From an uncultured Solirubrobacterales bacterium (GTDB lineage Bacteria; Actinomycetota; Thermoleophilia; Solirubrobacterales; Solirubrobacteraceae): a stretch of DNA of 64,000 nucleotides. How positions within the stretch are numbered: the stretch's first letter is position 1; the number at the start of each line of letters is the position of its first letter. The stretch spans positions 38,118 through 102,117 of the forward strand of contig CAVOOV010000014.1 in assembly GCA_963697655.1 (NCBI GenBank). The letters run 5' to 3'. Below, in pieces: positions 6,491-62,078 of the stretch. The notes beneath the pieces were generated by a model that had not been told where the DNA came from, made no database searches, and worked only from the letters and a program-made list of their open reading frames with translations. The position numbers and the translations under genes were made by a program.

Positions 6491-7014
6491 GTATCTCGAT
6501 CGGCGCGCAGGCGCCCGACTTCCAGCTGCCCGACACCGACGGCGCCACCTGGTCGGCGTCCGACTCCGGAGTTCCGGCCACCGTGGTCGTGTTCACCTGC
6601 AACCACTGCCCGTACGCGCTCGCCTGGCAGGACCGGCTCGCCGATGCCGCGCGCGACTACGCCGATCGCGGTGTCCGCTTCCTCGCGATCAACGCCAACG
6701 ACGCCGACCGTTACCCGCGGGACTCGTTTGACGCGATGAGGTCGCGGGTCGCCGGCGAGGACTGGCCGATGCCGTATCTGCACGACGCCACGCAGGAGGT
6801 CGCGCACGCGTACGACGCGAAGGTGACGCCCGACGTGTTCGTGCTCGACTCCGAGCGCCGGCTCCAGTATCGCGGCGCGCCCGACAGCGACTACGACGAT
6901 CCGGGTCAGAACGCGCAGTGGCTCCGGGAAGCCTTGGATGCGGTGCTGGGCGGCTCTGAGCCGTCGCGGGCGGAGACCAAGCCGGTCGGCTGCTCGATCA
7001 AGTGGAAGCGGTAG
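6487..7014 (+). CDS. Thioredoxin family (AhpC/TSA-like) redoxin
   Basis: FTCNHCPY, TPDVF, C-terminal GCSIKWK. Confidence 0.92.
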   Translation: MSISIGAQAPDFQLPDTDGATWSASDSGVPATVVVFTCNHCPYALAWQDRLADAARDYADRGVRFLAINANDADRYPRDSFDAMRSRVAGEDWPMPYLHDATQEVAHAYDAKVTPDVFVLDSERRLQYRGAPDSDYDDPGQNAQWLREALDAVLGGSEPSRAETKPVGCSIKWKR

Positions 7015-7016
7015 CG

Positions 7017-7340
7017 ATGGACGACTACACGCCGCAGCAGGTGGCGGAGCTGATCGAGCGCGGCGAGATCCAGCTGATCGACGTGCGCCAGCCCGAGGAG
7101 CACGACGCGGGCCGGATTGCCGGCGATCGCCTGGTGGTGCTCGCGGACCTCGCTGGCGAGGTCGACAGCATCGACCGCACGCGTCCGGTGGTCTTCTATT
7201 GCCGCAGTGGCGCTCGCTCGGCGATGGCGACCGAGGCTTTCCGCGGCGCGGGGTTCGACGCCCACAACATGCTTGGCGGTTTGCTCGACTGGGACGCCGC
7301 CGGGCTCCCGCTCGAGCCGGCCGACGGCTACGTGGCGTAG
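7017..7340 (+). CDS. Rhodanese-like domain protein
   Basis: LIDVRQPEE, YCRSGARS, GGLLDW. Confidence 0.92.
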   Translation: MDDYTPQQVAELIERGEIQLIDVRQPEEHDAGRIAGDRLVVLADLAGEVDSIDRTRPVVFYCRSGARSAMATEAFRGAGFDAHNMLGGLLDWDAAGLPLEPADGYVA

Positions 7341-7545
7341 GTCCGCCGCAGCGCCAGCAGCACGCCCTCCAGGAGCAGCGCCCGGCCGCTCCGTCCGGCT
7401 CGGCCACCGCCGCACGGTGGGCCTGGGGACCGCCGTCTGCAAGATTTCGGTCGCCCTAAAGGAATCTGCCCCCGGAGCCCGATAGGGGTTATGAAACATT
7501 TGTCGGCCGCGTCGTGTAGGCTGCCGCGCCGACATAGAAAAGCCC

Positions 7546-42678: not shown

Positions 42679-43692
42679 ATGACCGCGGTCAAGCTCACGT
42701 CTCTGTCTCATGGCGCCGGCTGCGCCTGCAAGGTACCCGCGGCGCTGCTCGCGCCGCTGGTTGACGCGCTTCCTCGATCTGAGGATCCGAACCTGCTGGT
42801 CGGGACCTCGACCTCCGATGACGCCGGCGTCTACCGCGTGCGCGAGGACCTCGCGCTGGTCCAGACCGTGGACTTCTTCACCCCGATCGTCGACGACCCC
42901 TACGACTTCGGCCGGATCGCTGCCACCAACGCGCTGTCCGACGTCTACGCGATGGGTGGACGACCGGTGAGCGCGCTGAACCTGGTCGCGTGGTCGATCG
43001 AGGAGCTCGGCTCCGAGATGCTCGGCGAGGTGCTGCGCGGCGGTCACGACGTGGCCACCGCCGCCGGGGTGGTGATCGTCGGCGGTCATACGATCGACGA
43101 CCCCGAGCCCAAGTACGGGATGGCGGTTACCGGCTTGGTCAACCCGGACGAGGTGATCACGAACGCCGGCGGCCGGGCCGGAGACGTGCTGGTACTGACC
43201 AAGCCGGTTGGCGCAGGCGCGGTCACGACGTCTTTGAAGAAGGGACTGGCCTCCGAGGAGGTGCTGGCAGCGGCGGTCGAGGTGATGACCGAGCTGAACG
43301 AGCCCGGGTCGGCGGCGGCGCGGGCAGCCGGCGCTCGGGGGATGACCGACGTCACCGGGTTCGGCTTGCTCGGTCATCTGCACGAGCTGGCACTCGCGAG
43401 TGGCGTGGCCGCGGTCGTGGACGCGCCGGCGGTCCCGGCGATCCCGGGCGCGCTCGAGCTGCTCGAGGACGATCGGGCGGTCGCCGGCGGCAGCCGCAAC
43501 AACCGCCGGTACGCCGAGGAGTTCGCGTCGTTCGACGACGGCGTCGACGAGGTCCGGCGGCGGCTCGTGACCGACGCGATGACCTCCGGCGGCCTGCTCG
43601 TGGCGGTCGATCCGTCGAGGGCTGCCGAGGTCCCCGGAGCGGTCATCGGTCGGCTCGTGGAGGGCGAGCCGGGCACGATCACGGTGCTCTAG
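42679..43692 (+). CDS. selD: Selenide, water dikinase (Cys form)
   Basis: SHGAGCACK, QTVDFFTP, NALSDVYAMGG, TDVTGFGLLGH, TSGGLL. Confidence 0.97.
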   Translation: MTAVKLTSLSHGAGCACKVPAALLAPLVDALPRSEDPNLLVGTSTSDDAGVYRVREDLALVQTVDFFTPIVDDPYDFGRIAATNALSDVYAMGGRPVSALNLVAWSIEELGSEMLGEVLRGGHDVATAAGVVIVGGHTIDDPEPKYGMAVTGLVNPDEVITNAGGRAGDVLVLTKPVGAGAVTTSLKKGLASEEVLAAAVEVMTELNEPGSAAARAAGARGMTDVTGFGLLGHLHELALASGVAAVVDAPAVPAIPGALELLEDDRAVAGGSRNNRRYAEEFASFDDGVDEVRRRLVTDAMTSGGLLVAVDPSRAAEVPGAVIGRLVEGEPGTITVL

Positions 43693-56492: not shown

Positions 56493-57455
56493 ATGGCTGG
56501 GGCTGACGAATCGCTCGCACAACGGCTCCTCGCCGGCGACCGCCGCGCGCTCGCCCGCGGGATCTCGCTGGTCGAGAACGACGACCCCGAGGGGTGGGCG
56601 CTGGTCAAGGAGGTCTATCCCCGCACCGGCCACGCCTCCGTGATCGGCGTGACCGGGCCTCCGGGGGCCGGGAAGTCGACGTTGCTGGGCGCCCTGACCA
56701 AGCTCGAGCGGGCGCGCGATCGGACCGTGGCCGTGCTGTCGATCGACCCGACATCGCCGTTCACCCAGGGCGCCCTGCTCGGCGACCGGATCCGCCTGAC
56801 CGACCACTTCCTCGATCCGGGCGTCTACATCCGCTCGATGGCCAGCCGCGGCGCGCTCGGCGGCCTGAGCGAGGCCGCGCTCCAGGCCGCGCTGTTGATG
56901 GACGCCTCGGGGCGCGACATCGTGCTGCTCGAGACCGTCGGCGTCGGCCAGGCCGAGGTCGACATCATCGACCACGCCGACACCGTCGTGCTCGTGCTGA
57001 TGCCCGGCTCGGGCGATTCGATCCAGGCGCTGAAGGCCGGGGTGATGGAGATCCCCGACGTGATCGTCGTCAACAAGGCCGAGCACCCGCTGACCGACAC
57101 GATGGTGCGCGAGATCAGGAACGTGCTCGCGCTCGGGCCGAAGGGCGGATGGAAGGTCCCGATCGTCAAGACCGAGGCCGTGAACGGCGTCGGGATCGAG
57201 GAGCTGGCCGAGAAGCTCGCCGAGCACCACGCCTACGTCGAGGCCGAGGGCACGCTGTCCGAGCGCCGGCGCCGCAACCTGATGAACGAGGTGCTGGCGC
57301 TGGCGACGTACCGCATGCGCCGCGAGCTCGAGGCGTCGGTCCGCGAGGATCCCGAGGTCCAGCAGTTGCTCGACCGGGTCGTGGCGCGCGAGATCGACCC
57401 CGCCAGCGCGGCCACCACCGTGCTCGAGCGGCGGGCCGAGGAGCTCGCGCGATGA
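56493..57455 (+). CDS. meaB: Methylmalonyl-CoA mutase-associated GTPase
   Basis: GPPGAGKST, DPTSPF..GALLGDRIR, ETVGVGQ, NKAE. Confidence 0.94.
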   Translation: MAGADESLAQRLLAGDRRALARGISLVENDDPEGWALVKEVYPRTGHASVIGVTGPPGAGKSTLLGALTKLERARDRTVAVLSIDPTSPFTQGALLGDRIRLTDHFLDPGVYIRSMASRGALGGLSEAALQAALLMDASGRDIVLLETVGVGQAEVDIIDHADTVVLVLMPGSGDSIQALKAGVMEIPDVIVVNKAEHPLTDTMVREIRNVLALGPKGGWKVPIVKTEAVNGVGIEELAEKLAEHHAYVEAEGTLSERRRRNLMNEVLALATYRMRRELEASVREDPEVQQLLDRVVAREIDPASAATTVLERRAEELAR

Positions 57456-57922
57456 GCGCGGCGCTCGCGCCGGCGTTCCTGGTCGCCTCGCTGCTGTTGT
57501 GCGTGTCGGGCGCGCTCAAGCTGCGCTCCGGTGGGTCGGCGATGCGCGCTCTCGGGGCGGGCGAGGTGGCGCTCGGCGCCGTGTGCGCGGCGCACCCGAC
57601 CCAGGCGCTGGCGGTGGCGCTGGCGGTGGTCTACGCGGTGTTCGCGGGGGTGGCCGTCGTCCTCATGCGCCGTCGACTGGCGTGCGGGTGCTTTGGAGAG
57701 AACGACTTTCCAGTGTCCGCCGGCCACTGCATCGCCAGTGCCCTACTGGGGACGCTGGTGTTGGCGGCGGCGGTCGCCGGGCCCCGTGGGCTCGGCTGGG
57801 TCTTTGGGCGAGCGCCGGGCACGGCGGCCGTGCTCCTGATCGGGATCGCCGGCGCGGTGTACGCGGTCGTGCTCGTGTATACCGTTGTGCCGCGCGCCTG
57901 GGGAGCCTGGGAGCGGGCATGA
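57452..57922 (+). CDS. MauE/DoxX-family redox membrane protein
   Basis: SGALKL, CGCFG; TM helices. Confidence 0.8.
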   Translation: MSAALAPAFLVASLLLCVSGALKLRSGGSAMRALGAGEVALGAVCAAHPTQALAVALAVVYAVFAGVAVVLMRRRLACGCFGENDFPVSAGHCIASALLGTLVLAAAVAGPRGLGWVFGRAPGTAAVLLIGIAGAVYAVVLVYTVVPRAWGAWERA

Positions 57923-58541
57923 CCGCCGGCGACCGTGTGCTGGGGCGGCTCGGGGCACTGCTCGAGCGGCGCACCTCGCGGCGTGGGGCGCTCGCGCGCG
58001 CGGCGGTTGCCGGCTCGGCGCTCGCGGTGGCGCCGGTCCGCTACCTGGTCCGTCCCGGCACGGCGTGGGCGGTGCTCCGGCCCGGGACTGCGCCAAGGGC
58101 ACCAAGTGCACCGACGGCTACACCGCGTTCTGCTGCGAGATCGAGAACGGCAACAACGCCTGCCCGCCGAACACGTACATCGCGGGCTGGTGGAAGTGCA
58201 CGAGCTACCGCGGCCACGGCCTCTGCCACGACCAGGGGGTGCGCTACTACATCGACTGCAACCGGTTCCCGGGGACGGTGTTCCCGGGCGGCTGCCAGTG
58301 CGCCCACGGCGACTGCGCGCATCGGGCGGTCGACTGCAACCACTTCCGCTACGGGCAGTGCAACACCCAGATCGGCGGCACCACCGAGGTGGTGTGCCGG
58401 CTGGTCGTGTGCCAGAACCCGGCGACCGTGCCCTCGATGAACTGCAACGGGACCGAGATGGTCGACAACCGGACGTGCACGCACAACAACCCCTGCCTCG
58501 AGGGCCTGGGGATGCAGCTGCCGGGAGGAGGCGGGGCGTAG
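57919..58541 (+). CDS. Tat-exported Cys-rich protein, distant methylamine dehydrogenase light-chain (MauA)-like; frameshift near 58085
   Basis: TSRRGAL Tat motif; DGY, CPPNT..AGWWKC, YYIDC; 18 Cys. Confidence 0.7.
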
Positions 58542-59204
58542 GTGGTCGCGCTGGTGTCGGTCGAGACCGTGCTGTTGGTTCTGCTCGTCGTGCTCGTCGC
58601 GGCGCTGCTGCGCAGCCACGCGGCGATCCTGCGCCGGCTCGGCCCGGACGACGGTGCCGACCGGGGCGCGGACGGGTTGGGCGTGCCGGCGCAGCCCCGG
58701 TCGGCGATCCGCCCCGACGCGCCGGCGCCGGAGCTAGCCGGCGTCACGCCCGCCGGCGACGCGGTCAAGCTGTCGTTCGCGGGCGCGTCCGCGGGGCCGA
58801 CGCTGCTTGCGTTCCTGAGCACCGGCTGCACCAGCTGCGCGGGCTTCTTCGACACGCTCGGAGATCGACGCGCCCTGCCCGGTATGCGGCGCGTGATCGT
58901 GACCCGCGGCGCCGACCGCGAGCAGCGCGTCGAAGCTGCGCTCGCTGGCGCCGGCGGACGTTCCGGTGCGTGATGTCCTCGCAGGCGTGGGATGACTACG
59001 CGGTGCCCGGCTCGCCCGTACTTCGTGCTGATCGAGGACGGGGCGGTCCGGGGCGAGGGCGTCGCGACCACGTGGGACGCGCTCGCATCGCTCGTCGGCG
59101 ATGCGGTCGAGGAGCAGCGCGAGGAACGTGACCTCGAGGCGCGGCTGGCGGCGGCCGGCATCGGGCCGGACCACTCCAGCCTGTACCCGGAGGGCCCGCG
59201 CTGA
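58542..59204 (+). CDS. MauD-like membrane-anchored thioredoxin-fold protein; frameshifts at 58920-59020
   Basis: N-terminal TM, FLSTGCTSC, Y.VPGSPYFVLI. Confidence 0.75.
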
Positions 59205-59854
59205 GCCCGCTGCTGGTCCTCGGTTGCGCAGCTGCGATCACGGCCGCCGTGGTGTCCGCCTGGTCCCCCTGAGGCGAGTCGATGCTCGCGAGCATCACCC
59301 CGCTCGGAGAGCGGGGCCGCCGTTCAAACTGGTGGGTGACGGTGACCGCGTTCCTGATCGGCGCCATCGCGGCGTCGGCCGGCGCCGGCGCGGCCCTCGG
59401 GGCGCTGGGCTCGGTCGCGCTGCCGGCCCACCCCCGGTTGGCGGTCCTGCTCGGAGCGATAGGAGTCGCGATCGTCCTGGACGGCCTGCCCCTCGCGGTT
59501 CCCGGCCCCCGGCGGCAGGTCGACGAGCGCTGGCTCGACCGGTACCGAGGCTGGGTGTACGGGGCCGGGTACGGTGCGCAGCTCGGGCTCGGCGTGACCA
59601 CGATCGTGTCGAGCGCGGCGACATACGTGACGGTGCTGGCGGCGCTCCAGACGGCGAGCGCTCCGGCCGGCGCGATCGTCCTCGGCTGCTTCGGCGCCGT
59701 CCGCGGCCTCACCCCGCTGGCTGCCGGCGGCGTGCGAAGTCAGCGCCAGCTGGTCGTTTTCCACCGTGGCCTTGCGCGCTGGCGCGCCTGGGCCAGGTGG
59801 GGCGCGGTCGCAACGCAAGCCGGGATGCTCGTGCTCGCGCTCGCGCTGTCGTGA
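59201..59854 (+). CDS. MauF/DsbD-like membrane protein, probable selenoprotein (TGA at 59270-59272)
   Basis: In-frame SAWSP-U-GESMLASITP; probable CTG start overlapping the previous stop; RQVDERW, YGAQLGLG. Confidence 0.75.
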
Positions 59855-60299
59855 CCAAGCTCGAGGCGCACGGGCTGCGCGATCGAGCTGCCGAGGGGGT
59901 GGAGCGGGCGGGTGTTCAAGCGCGCCCGCGGCGGCGCCACGCTTCACGCCGGCGACTTCGAGCTCCCGCTCGACGACGGGGAGTTCGGGGACCAGAGCAC
60001 CGCGGTGATGCCCCCCGGCACGACGTTCCTGGCGCTCACCGAGTACCTGCCCGGGGGCGGGACTCGAGCCGGGCAGGGGACTGTTCGCGGCCCGCCGGGT
60101 CCCGAGGGTGCTCGACCCGACCAGCTTCAGCGCCAGGGGGCTGGCCCACCCCCGCCCGGACCAGGCCGGGACGCAGCACTTCTTCACCGCGGTGGGCCGC
60201 CCGTTCTGCCTGTACGTCGTGATCTCCGGCGCCCGGACCGAGCGCAGCCGCCAACTCGCGGCCCTCGGCGGGGTGCTGCGATCGCTGCGGATCGACTGA
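59851..60299 (+). CDS. Hypothetical protein, last gene of the mau-like operon (frameshifted)
   Basis: GTGA overlap; pieces LHAGDFELP..GEFG and QHFFT...RPFCLYVV. Confidence 0.6.
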
Positions 60300-60311: not shown

Positions 60312-60872
60312 CTAGGCCGGGATCTGGTTGCCGGTGTAGCGGGCGGCGTCGTGGCCGAGGACGATCACGCACCGAGTCAGGTTGAGCCGAGACTTGTTCA
60401 CGTACGTGGCGCCGATCTGGGTCGCCACCGTCGTCCCGTCGGGCGCCGTGCCGGTCGCAGTGACGTGGAGCTTGATCTGGAACGGGACCTCCTCGCCGGT
60501 GGCGTAGACCTGGCCGGCGCATTTGAGCGGCGCGAAGAACCGGCCCGTGCCGGCGTAGTGCCCGGGGGAGGTCTCGGTCAGGATCAGCGTGTCGGTGGCG
60601 TTCGCGCGCCCGCGGAACAGGCGTACCTGAGCGCACGGCCCGCTGACGCACAGCGGCGTGAACGTCCAGGTCCGCTGTACGACCTCGCCGGCGTGCTCGC
60701 CGCGGACGTCGTGGGCGACCGTGACGCGACCGGTGAGCTGGAAGGTGCCCTCGAGGCGGGACTGGACCCCGGGGGCGGGAGGGCCCGGTTGTGCCGGCGC
60801 CGTGCCGGCGCCGGCCGCGGACATGAGCGATGCGGCGGCGACCGCGATCAGCGCGCGCGGGCGAACCCTCAT
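60312..60872 (-). CDS. Hypothetical secreted protein
   Basis: Signal peptide; overlaps the stop of the acyl-CoA dehydrogenase. Confidence 0.65.
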   Translation of the reverse strand: MRVRPRALIAVAAASLMSAAGAGTAPAQPGPPAPGVQSRLEGTFQLTGRVTVAHDVRGEHAGEVVQRTWTFTPLCVSGPCAQVRLFRGRANATDTLILTETSPGHYAGTGRFFAPLKCAGQVYATGEEVPFQIKLHVTATGTAPDGTTVATQIGATYVNKSRLNLTRCVIVLGHDAARYTGNQIPA

Positions 60873-62046
60873 GCCCCCAGGGCGCGGGCGATCACCATCT
60901 CCTGTACCTCGTCGGTGCCCTCGCCGATCGTCAGGATCTTCGCGTCGCGGTAGAACCGGCACACGGGATATTCCTCGATGTAGCCGTACCCGCCGTGGAT
61001 CTGGACCGCCTCGTCGGCGGCGCGTACCGCGAGGCGCCCGCTCTTGAGCTTCGCCTGGGCGGCCGTCAGCGTGAAGTTCGCGCCCTGGTCCTTCAGATAC
61101 GCGGACTTGTAGACGAGCAGCCGGGTGGCCTCGATCTCGGTGGCCATGTTCGCGAGCTTGCTCTGGATCGCCTGGAACTTCGAGATCGGGCGGCCGAACG
61201 CGCGGCGCTCCTTGGCGTAGGCGAGGGCCTGGTCGAGCGCGCCCTGAGCGAGGCCGACGCCCATCGCGGCGACGCCGATCCGGCCGATGTCGAGGACGTT
61301 GAGGAACTGGCGGAAGCCGGCGCCGCGCTGGCCGACCAGGTTCTCCTCGGGCACGCGGCAGTCGTCGAACGTCAGCGGTCGCGTGTCCGACGCGTTCCAG
61401 CCCATCTTCCGGTACGGCTCGCCCGGCTCGTAGCCCGGCGTTCCGTTGGGGACGATCAGGTTCGAGATTTCGCGCTCGCCGGGCGTCCGGTCGCCGCCGC
61501 GACCGTCGCTCCCGCGCCCCGTGCCGGTGACCGCGGTGATCACGACGACGCCGAGATGTCGGTGCCGGCGTTCGTGATGAACTGCTTGGAGCCGTTGATC
61601 ACCCACTCGCCGCTCTCGAGCGCCGCGCGCGTGCGGGTGTTGCCGGCGTCCGAGCCCGCCTCGGGCTCGGTCAGGCCGAACGCGCCGAGCCGCTCGCCGC
61701 TGCACAGGCGCGGGAGCCACTCCTGCTTCTGGGCCTCGGACCCGAACAGGTAGATCGGCTGGGTCCCGAGCGAGGTGTGGGCGCACAGCGTGATCGCCAC
61801 CGACGAGTCCACGCGCGCCAGTTCCTCGACCGCGAGCGCGTACGCGAACGAGTCACCGCCGGCGCCGCCGTACTCCTCGGGGAACGGGATCCCCATCAGA
61901 TCGAGCTCGCCCAGGCGGCGGACGATGTCGTATGGGAAGGCATGCGTCCGGTCGAGCTCCTCGGCTACCGGCGCGATCTCCTGCTCGGCGAACTCGCGGA
62001 CGGTTCGCTGAAGGAGGCGGTGATGGTCGGTTAGATCGAACTCCAT
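60869..62046 (-). CDS. Acyl-CoA dehydrogenase (frameshift near 61550)
   Basis: FGLTEPEAGSD, NGSKQFITN, QIHGGYG, IGEGT. Confidence 0.93.
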
Positions 62047-62078
62047 GCCTCGGATTCTCACAGCCCTACGATCAGGAC

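Follow-up and report, generated by a model that had tools for sequence, protein, structure and literature searches.

We analysed a 64,000-nucleotide stretch of DNA (hereafter the window) from an uncultured soil actinobacterium of the order Solirubrobacterales (G000:C14:38118-102117, about 69% G+C), which belongs to an 18-contig assembly of 88.9% completeness. The window carries an operon of five genes in which homologues of MauE, MauD and MauF, known as accessory proteins of methylamine dehydrogenase (MADH), accompany a cysteine-packed client protein exported by the twin-arginine translocation (Tat) pathway, and in which the MauF-like gene contains an in-frame UGA predicted to encode selenocysteine (Sec, U). 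What is new here is the re-use of Mau accessory proteins for a client that is not a dehydrogenase, together with a new selenoprotein family. The features are the following, with positions counted in the window unless another contig or locus is named.

57452-57922, + strand: MauE-like membrane protein, 156 aa, with a CGCFG (CxC) motif; intact frame
57919-58541, + strand: Tat-exported, MauA-like client with 18 Cys; start ATG 57919, ATGA overlap
58542-59204, + strand: MauD-like membrane-anchored thioredoxin with a CTSC motif; start GTG 58542
59201-59854, + strand: MauF-like selenoprotein, about 217 aa, about six predicted membrane helices; start CTG 59201, CTGA overlap
59270-59272, + strand: in-frame UGA (predicted Sec codon) of the MauF-like gene, motif WSP-U-G
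59281-59316, + strand: element resembling a selenocysteine insertion sequence (SECIS), two hairpins, RNAalifold consensus
59851-60299, + strand: fifth gene, about 148 aa, without a signal peptide; start GTG 59851, GTGA overlap
56493-57455, + strand: meaB, methylmalonyl-CoA mutase-associated GTPase (Pfam MeaB, 2.1e-82)

A first-pass annotation of the letters alone had proposed five translationally coupled genes following meaB. All the features named in it were recovered, with overlapping stops and starts, beginning with the meaB stop, which overlaps the ATG of the mauE-like gene (ATGA). Specifically, CGCFG lies in the 57452-57922 frame; the domain ending at 58541 holds exactly 18 Cys and follows a Tat signal (TIGR01409, E 2e-4); the CTSC thioredoxin reads from GTG 58542 and is membrane-anchored; and the TGA at 59270-59272 stands in frame within WSP-TGA-G. 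What the annotation did not report is that three of the genes are broken as assembled. In the orthologues, an ATG or GTG start stands where the window has CTG 59201.

As a reference we used the mau cluster of Paracoccus denitrificans PD1222 plasmid 1 (NC_008688.1, mauRFBEDACJGMN), whose mauF-E-D-A segment lies at 216737-220681. The alignment of the MauF-like protein with P. denitrificans MauF by hhalign extends over 166 columns at 29% identity (probability 97.4%, E 1.3e-11). In this alignment WSP-U-G sits on the WSPCG of MauF, at the end of helix 1, so that Sec takes the place of the sole conserved Cys of MauF, and the open, hydrophobic stretch upstream of the TGA aligns with MauF helix 1. The Sec peptide reads AAWSP-U-GESMLASITPLGER. 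No Pfam or NCBIfam model of MauF exists, which explains why family scans of the MauF-like protein come back blank.

The TGA is conserved and alternates with Cys codons. It is present in 13 of 15 sequences (the window copy and 12 of 14 orthologues), the other two having TGT, and in all 73 further Solirubrobacterales species, which brings the order to 86 TGA and 2 Cys forms among 88 MauF-like genes. In other actinobacterial families, 15 of 18 loci carry TGA and three carry TGT or TGC. Two stems follow the codon on the same strand:

59281-59296, + strand: hairpin 1, GAUGCU-NNNN-AGCAUC, +12 to +27 from the TGA
59298-59316, + strand: hairpin 2, CCCCGCUC-GGN-GAGCGGGG, +29 to +47 from the TGA

Both hairpins are predicted by RNAalifold in every Sec form, while the Cys forms lack both and also encode a different peptide there. 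Across 73 species, the entropy of third codon positions drops to 0 inside the stems, compared to 1.96 bits in the loop and 1-1.9 bits beyond the hairpins. In the phylum as a whole, hairpin 1 reaches 96% pairing, and hairpin 2 shows compensatory changes at pairs 29-47 and 30-46 (C-G to A-U, U-A and G-C); with stems that hardly vary, the covariation signal is modest. In one clade, the site of hairpin 2 holds a stem of different sequence, CUCCCC-GGUC-GGGGAG.

The genome also encodes the machinery of Sec synthesis and insertion. A tRNA-SeC(tca) is found at C4:43531-43627, and selA and selB lie on the minus strand at G000:C2:120851-123752, the selA match being in two pieces and that of selB in three, which suggests frame breaks in these genes of the assembly. 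The last component is in the window itself:

42691-43620, + strand: selD, selenophosphate synthetase (G000:C14:80808-81737; TIGR00476, 5.1e-116, above cut-off)

This gene stands 14 kb upstream of the MauF-like selenoprotein gene. All together, these data indicate that the MauF-like protein is, as judged from its sequence context, a true selenoprotein whose in-frame TGA serves as the Sec codon. The selenium dependence put forward in the first-pass annotation is thereby borne out by a conserved TGA alternating with Cys, by hairpins under selection and by a full set of Sec machinery.

The remaining Mau-like members are recognised with different degrees of strength. The MauD-like protein aligns end to end with P. 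denitrificans MauD by BLASTP (27% identity over 187 aa, E 7e-7), the alignment spanning the membrane anchor, the CxxC and the cis-Pro region, with GCTSC opposite SCPVC. TIGR02661 (MauD) is the best NCBIfam family for the intact orthologue L030:3591-4208 (1.3e-5), and the MauD-like protein fails the equivalog cut-off of this family, scoring 24.8 bits against the 188.6 bits needed. The MauE-like protein scores 24.6 bits (3.4e-5) with Pfam MauE PF07291, just below the gathering threshold of 27 bits, and its L030 orthologue scores 23.3 bits; the BLASTP match to P. denitrificans MauE is weak (E 5e-4) and centres on CGCF. Here the CxC and the following Phe are kept, CGCFG in the window aligning with CGCF of P. 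denitrificans MauE. In addition, two library proteins, P0002 and P0003, combine MauE and client in one open reading frame (ORF), and their N-termini pass the Pfam MauE threshold with 52.3 and 45.8 bits. The homology to Mau proteins that had been proposed is therefore direct for MauF and MauD, weak for MauE and, compared with the P. denitrificans cluster, remote at best for MauA.

The client was examined at the level of its family. Its 18 Cys and its WW pair are invariant in 13 close orthologues; this is the single adjacent WW noted in the first-pass annotation, and no second conserved Trp is present. Conservation across 66 diverse members is complete or almost complete at W56 (the second Trp of GWWK), N44, P47, R73, D77 and R125 and at about 14 Cys. 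Neither Pfam nor NCBIfam has a family for the Cys-rich domain, whose members are named 'hypothetical' or 'Tat signal domain-containing' in their sources. An exhaustive profile search returned 439 clusters of the domain at 50% identity. Many members are 400-740 aa long and carry the domain at the N-terminus, ahead of LGFP, CW_binding_2, ricin, SLH, B_lectin or DUF4214 modules. Since it is fused to wall-binding modules, the Cys-rich domain is predicted to be a cell-surface domain. As a side observation, the client ends in ...LPGGGGA (58518-58538), with LPG-x-GG-A/V in 13 of 13 close orthologues, and in other lineages the domain runs on into the wall-binding modules at the point where the client has this end. 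Some matches to the Cys-rich domain contain an in-frame TGA, which we considered as a further Sec codon and rejected, as it is the natural stop after ...CL.

The fold of the client was approached with an AlphaFold2 (AF2) model, which reached a mean predicted local distance difference test (pLDDT) of 88 and a predicted template modelling score (pTM) of 0.80 when built from the 66 diverse members, compared to a pLDDT of 36 with the 13 close orthologues. Foldseek placed the light chains of aralkylamine dehydrogenase (AADH) and MADH on top, with non-significant scores (E 0.5-4, TM 0.26-0.38). With VIA-align, one of 48,161 representative chains reached a Z of at least 2, and this was the AADH light chain 2agl_D (Z 2.1, root-mean-square deviation (rmsd) 3.5 A, 70 residues). 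In a second fold comparison, 14 chains had a Z of at least 2, and the 12 entries listed among them are all MADH or AADH light chains, at Z 2.1-2.3. These VIA matches to light chains, PDB 2bbk_L, 2agl_D and 3sws_C among them, are weak (rmsd 3.1-4.2 A over 70-81 residues).

In a profile-profile comparison with seven authentic light chains, the client scored 96.6% (E 6.2e-10) with the leaders included, compared to 23.7% (P 8.5e-4) with mature domains only; both alignments set CPP-x-T on CPPGT and W56 on Trp57 of the tryptophan tryptophylquinone (TTQ) cofactor. No residue matches the second TTQ residue, Trp108: the sole other Trp is the adjacent W55, and there is none near the Trp108 equivalent before C112. 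None of the 66 members matched the light-chain family PF02975, with E allowed up to 10, hidden Markov model searches of the PDB with two client alignments returned no light chain, and the client profile set against a single MauA sequence aligned through the leader alone. D77-C78 resembles Asp76-Cys77 of MADH by eye; hhalign sets the equivalent three residues off, and we do not claim this match. Our reading is that the client probably belongs to the light-chain superfamily as a remote member and that it is not a TTQ subunit.

A long, acidic and helical n-region before the twin arginine (...TSRRSFLG; 57919-58010 in the window, and also at L124:6116-6290) is common to MauA, to the client family and to a second actinobacterial client family described below, and the leaders alone align by hhalign at 95-96% across the three. 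A dedicated factor may recognise this n-region.

One other protein deserves mention beside the client. On a Thermomicrobium roseum plasmid (NC_011961.1, L125:11720-12169 and 7001-7444), an annotated MADH light chain contains GAWWAC, with the WW as in the client and the later W-C kept, and a nearby unannotated light-chain-like stretch contains a stop. This protein is a possible intermediate between the light chains and the client family.

The fifth protein gave no match in Pfam, NCBIfam or the PDB and nothing against MauJ, and in the ESM Atlas it falls in unnamed actinobacterial clusters only.

The absence of the catalytic partners was assessed genome-wide. Neither PF06433 (heavy chain) nor PF03150 (MauG/CCP) nor PF02975 gave any match in the host genome, and PF06433 and PF03150 were likewise blank in five operon-bearing genomes of the same genus that are 94-100% complete. 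As a positive control, PF06433 recovered mauB on the P. denitrificans plasmid (E 2.4e-212). The statement that the operon comes without mauB and mauG thus extends from the window to the host genome and its five near-complete congeners.

The distribution of the genes was surveyed in 401 evenly sampled genomes of Actinomycetota; the tallies for MauF-like genes include nine unpublished genomes (G297, G273, G058, G211, G262, G041, G159, G415, G088), and the linkage tally for the Cys-rich domain includes one (G297). MauF-like genes occur in 82 of the 401 genomes (63 of 251 genera), with exactly one in-frame TGA in about 67 of 86 matches. Of the 32 genomes with a Cys-rich domain, 29 have it about 2.5 kb or less from the MauF-like gene. 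In addition, every one of 18 loci taken from about ten other families contains the complete set of five genes, arranged in one of three gene orders, which is strong evidence of functional linkage, also for the fifth gene. The five genes are a unit conserved across Actinomycetota. Within Solirubrobacterales, meaB precedes the operon in 79 of 80 related loci. The contigs carrying these loci are metagenome-assembled genomes (MAGs) of uncultured Solirubrobacterales or Solirubrobacteraceae, many of them from the 'MFD' series with very long contigs.

By bringing these data together, we favour, with moderate confidence, a reading in which the cassette is a dedicated extracytoplasmic maturation system, an oxidative-folding relay, for one Cys-packed client. 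We infer the relay because MauE homologues can substitute for DsbB in Escherichia coli through their CxC active site, and because a thioredoxin-fold protein such as MauD has been proposed as the partner of MauE (bioRxiv 10.64898/2026.03.05.709764). In our scheme, MauE would make disulfides through its CxC and the quinone pool, in the manner of DsbB, and would oxidise the CTSC pair of the MauD-like thioredoxin, which would then put up to nine disulfides into the client. Sec-MauF would act as a third redox-active membrane partner, preferably read as a CcdA-like conduit of reducing equivalents for proofreading or isomerising mis-paired cysteines, in which the single Sec would make transient selenenylsulfide bonds. 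The fifth protein, which appears to be cytoplasmic, might handle or bind the long Tat leader common to the client and MauA.

Several points weigh against this scheme. For the proteins of the cassette, each step of the relay is drawn by inference. Tat substrates usually fold before export, an odd fit with disulfide formation outside the cell. MauF has a single conserved redox residue compared to two in CcdA/DsbD, and there is no DsbD_2 signal. A positive-inside charge count, which is a heuristic, makes the basic loops cytoplasmic and so places Sec at the cytoplasmic end of helix 1, a position that fits a conduit of reductant and proves none. Finally, three of the genes are broken as assembled and an intact paralogue exists, so that the window copy could be decaying. 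Of the distinct system with a selenium-dependent relay that had originally been suggested, the Mau homology, the selenium dependence and the lack of mauB and mauG stand, while the relay and the place of MauF in it are conjectural.

The same genes could serve a cofactor as well as disulfides. The client might be a quinoprotein in which W56 is converted to a tryptophan-derived quinone other than TTQ, either uncross-linked or linked to Cys, with the cassette, perhaps including Sec-MauF, aiding both cofactor and disulfides. It is consistent with this that MADH and AADH light chains are the sole fold matches, that the profile of the mature domain puts W56 on TTQ Trp57 and CPP-x-T on CPPGT, that W56 is invariant in the 66 diverse members, and that the accessory genes kept are precisely those of MauE, MauD and MauF. 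Moreover, in MADH the substrate of MauG is a Trp that is already mono-hydroxylated (PMC7876137), and therefore an earlier, MauG-independent step exists. However, the matches are weak (Z 2.1-2.3; 23.7%, P 8.5e-4 for mature domains), nothing in the client equals Trp108, the correspondence of the catalytic Asp residues is ambiguous in the alignment, and the operon holds neither a heavy chain nor MauG, nor a partner resembling LodB/GoxB or QhpG. We consider such a quinoprotein unlikely. An extended form of the idea, which we hold to be quite improbable, would make the client a new class of cell-surface tryptophylquinone protein whose invariant Trp is oxidised without MauG; the Sec of MauF would then be the catalytic centre of the MauG-independent step, performed by MauF, MauE and MauD for MADH too.

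Returning to the maturation system that we prefer, its integrity in the window depends on how the frame breaks are read. Frame-specific G+C content at third codon positions (GC3) and three-frame translation showed that the coding frame switches six times across the operon, and the breaks were placed to single bases by DNA alignment with two and then five relatives. Specifically, one base is absent from the client gene at about 58086, between the Tat leader (frame 1) and the Cys-rich domain (frame 0); the MauD-like thioredoxin gene has single extra bases at about 58930, 58968 and 59014; and the fifth gene has single extra bases at about 59880 and within 60048-60062. Among the first 14 relatives retrieved, the genes are each in a single frame, with the exception of the thioredoxin gene of one relative, and the order of the pieces is the same in all 14 and in every one of the 72 further loci that are long enough to show it.

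The six single-base indels are probable assembly errors. We read them in this way because the shifted frames, when followed, contain no nonsense codon and give 92% amino acid identity to the nearest orthologue, because selA, selB and an acyl-CoA dehydrogenase gene are likewise split in the same assembly, and because sister MAGs also show private 1-2-nt indels. The acyl-CoA dehydrogenase gene (60869-62061, minus strand) is covered by two overlapping ORFs of 173 aa and 305 aa with a frame change near 61552, which looks like another small assembly indel. Three of the six breaks, the insertions at 58930, 59880 and 60062, adjoin a TCGA tetranucleotide (GTCGAAG, GATCGAG and CTCGAG), and these might stem from base calling that errs systematically at a modified motif.

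Elsewhere in the same genome, an intact paralogous cassette (L036, G000:C17:304804-306739) is in frame throughout, with a client 56% identical to that of the window and a TGA in its MauF-like gene. In this paralogue no stop separates the MauE-like frame from the Cys-rich gene, so that the two form a single ORF of 376 aa, and the same arrangement is seen in L038 and L039. The existence of this copy raises the possibility that the window holds a decaying pseudogene cluster, with real mutations as indels, while the C17 paralogue carries the function; in its favour, six of the eleven private 1-2-nt indels counted over 13 kb of the window are concentrated in the 2-kb stretch of the operon. This explanation appears improbable, since it has to account for shifted frames that lack nonsense codons and still keep 92% identity to the closest relative, for a GC3 signal that tracks the shifted frames, for the splitting of selA, selB and the acyl-CoA dehydrogenase gene in the same assembly, and for private small indels in sister MAGs, many of which are long-contig 'MFD' assemblies.

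Public gene calls offer a different account of the MauF-like gene, in which the TGA is an ordinary stop and the product is the annotated 190-aa protein, free of selenium. All public calls of the homologues are indeed 190-aa proteins that begin after the TGA, named hypothetical or, in a few entries from JGI, TauE/SafE or CcdA, names that we take as a lead only, and a scan of Rfam around the TGA matched no SECIS family. Against this, the frame upstream of the TGA is open, hydrophobic and aligned with MauF helix 1, the TGA is replaced by Cys codons only, the hairpins are confined to the TGA forms with their synonymous sites frozen, and the genome has a complete Sec machinery; an ordinary stop is thus very improbable indeed. 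Finally, that the operon belongs to an ordinary methylamine or aralkylamine dehydrogenase with heavy chain and MauG encoded elsewhere, as the mauE-A-D-F-like gene set and a genome just 88.9% complete could suggest, is scarcely credible in view of the blank PF06433, PF03150 and PF02975 searches of the host, the blank PF06433 and PF03150 searches of its five congeners alongside a positive PF06433 control, the failure of the client to match PF02975, its lack of a second Trp, and the fusion of its relatives to wall-binding domains, results that agree with the original suggestion of a distinct system.

Compared with the P. denitrificans mau cluster, the cassette shares homologues of MauF, MauE and MauD placed beside a small, disulfide-rich, Tat-exported protein with a long leader, and it keeps the WSPCG site of MauF (there with Cys), the CxC of MauE and the CxxC and N-terminal anchor of MauD. 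It differs in lacking MauB, amicyanin, MauJ, MauG and MauM/N, in having Sec for the Cys of MauF, in the addition of a fifth gene, and in its hosts, which are Actinomycetota whereas mau belongs to a methylotrophic proteobacterium. Unlike MauA with its 12 Cys, the client carries 18, together with a C-terminal extension and one invariant Trp, and it fails PF02975. With the MADH and AADH light chains in general, which are its only and weak fold matches, it shares the C-x5-C...CPP-x-T...W spacing and the leader, but it has no second Trp, a different Cys complement and no heavy chain.

CcdA/DsbD provides a working analogy only for the MauF-like protein: both are polytopic and carry an SPC-type redox residue at the proline motif of helix 1, and the MauF-like protein, like CcdA/DsbD, would work with an extracytoplasmic thioredoxin-like partner. 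However, the MauF-like protein has one conserved Sec/Cys instead of two Cys, and DsbD and DsbD_2 (PF02683, PF13386) gave no match at E up to 1 with the protein or up to 10 genome-wide.

The requirement of methylamine dehydrogenase for MauF goes back to the mau genetics of the 1990s, yet no function is assigned to MauF. The natural Sec/Cys pair at its only conserved Cys suggests that this residue is redox-active and catalytic, and it offers a direct handle on what MauF does. Our literature search found no description of a Sec-containing MauF, of MauF as a selenoprotein or of the five-gene cassette. With the cassette, Actinomycetota gain a widespread, unannotated selenoprotein family. The trio of MauE, MauD and MauF is not specific to amine dehydrogenases and would serve other Tat-exported, disulfide-dense proteins through the proposed relay. 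This wider use extends the finding of MauE as a general DsbB-like oxidase, whose distribution is far wider than that of mau clusters (bioRxiv 10.64898/2026.03.05.709764). The cassette resembles the system of that study in pairing a CxC membrane protein with a thioredoxin-fold partner, whereas the dedicated client and the five-gene arrangement are described here and not there; term counts in the same study (10.64898/2026.03.05.709764) gave no mention of MauF, selenocysteine or Actinomycetota.

A second and more distant MauF subfamily, with the motif LFGP-U-GLSMVETITP, occurs beside a MauD-like gene, with a MauE-like gene nearby in some loci. Its client is a different Tat-exported protein of 10-11 Cys (YHICGH...GGGWSRCC...DCC) that has no Pfam family. 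This second Mau-like module was observed in other Actinomycetota at L150, L153, L154, L158 and L160.

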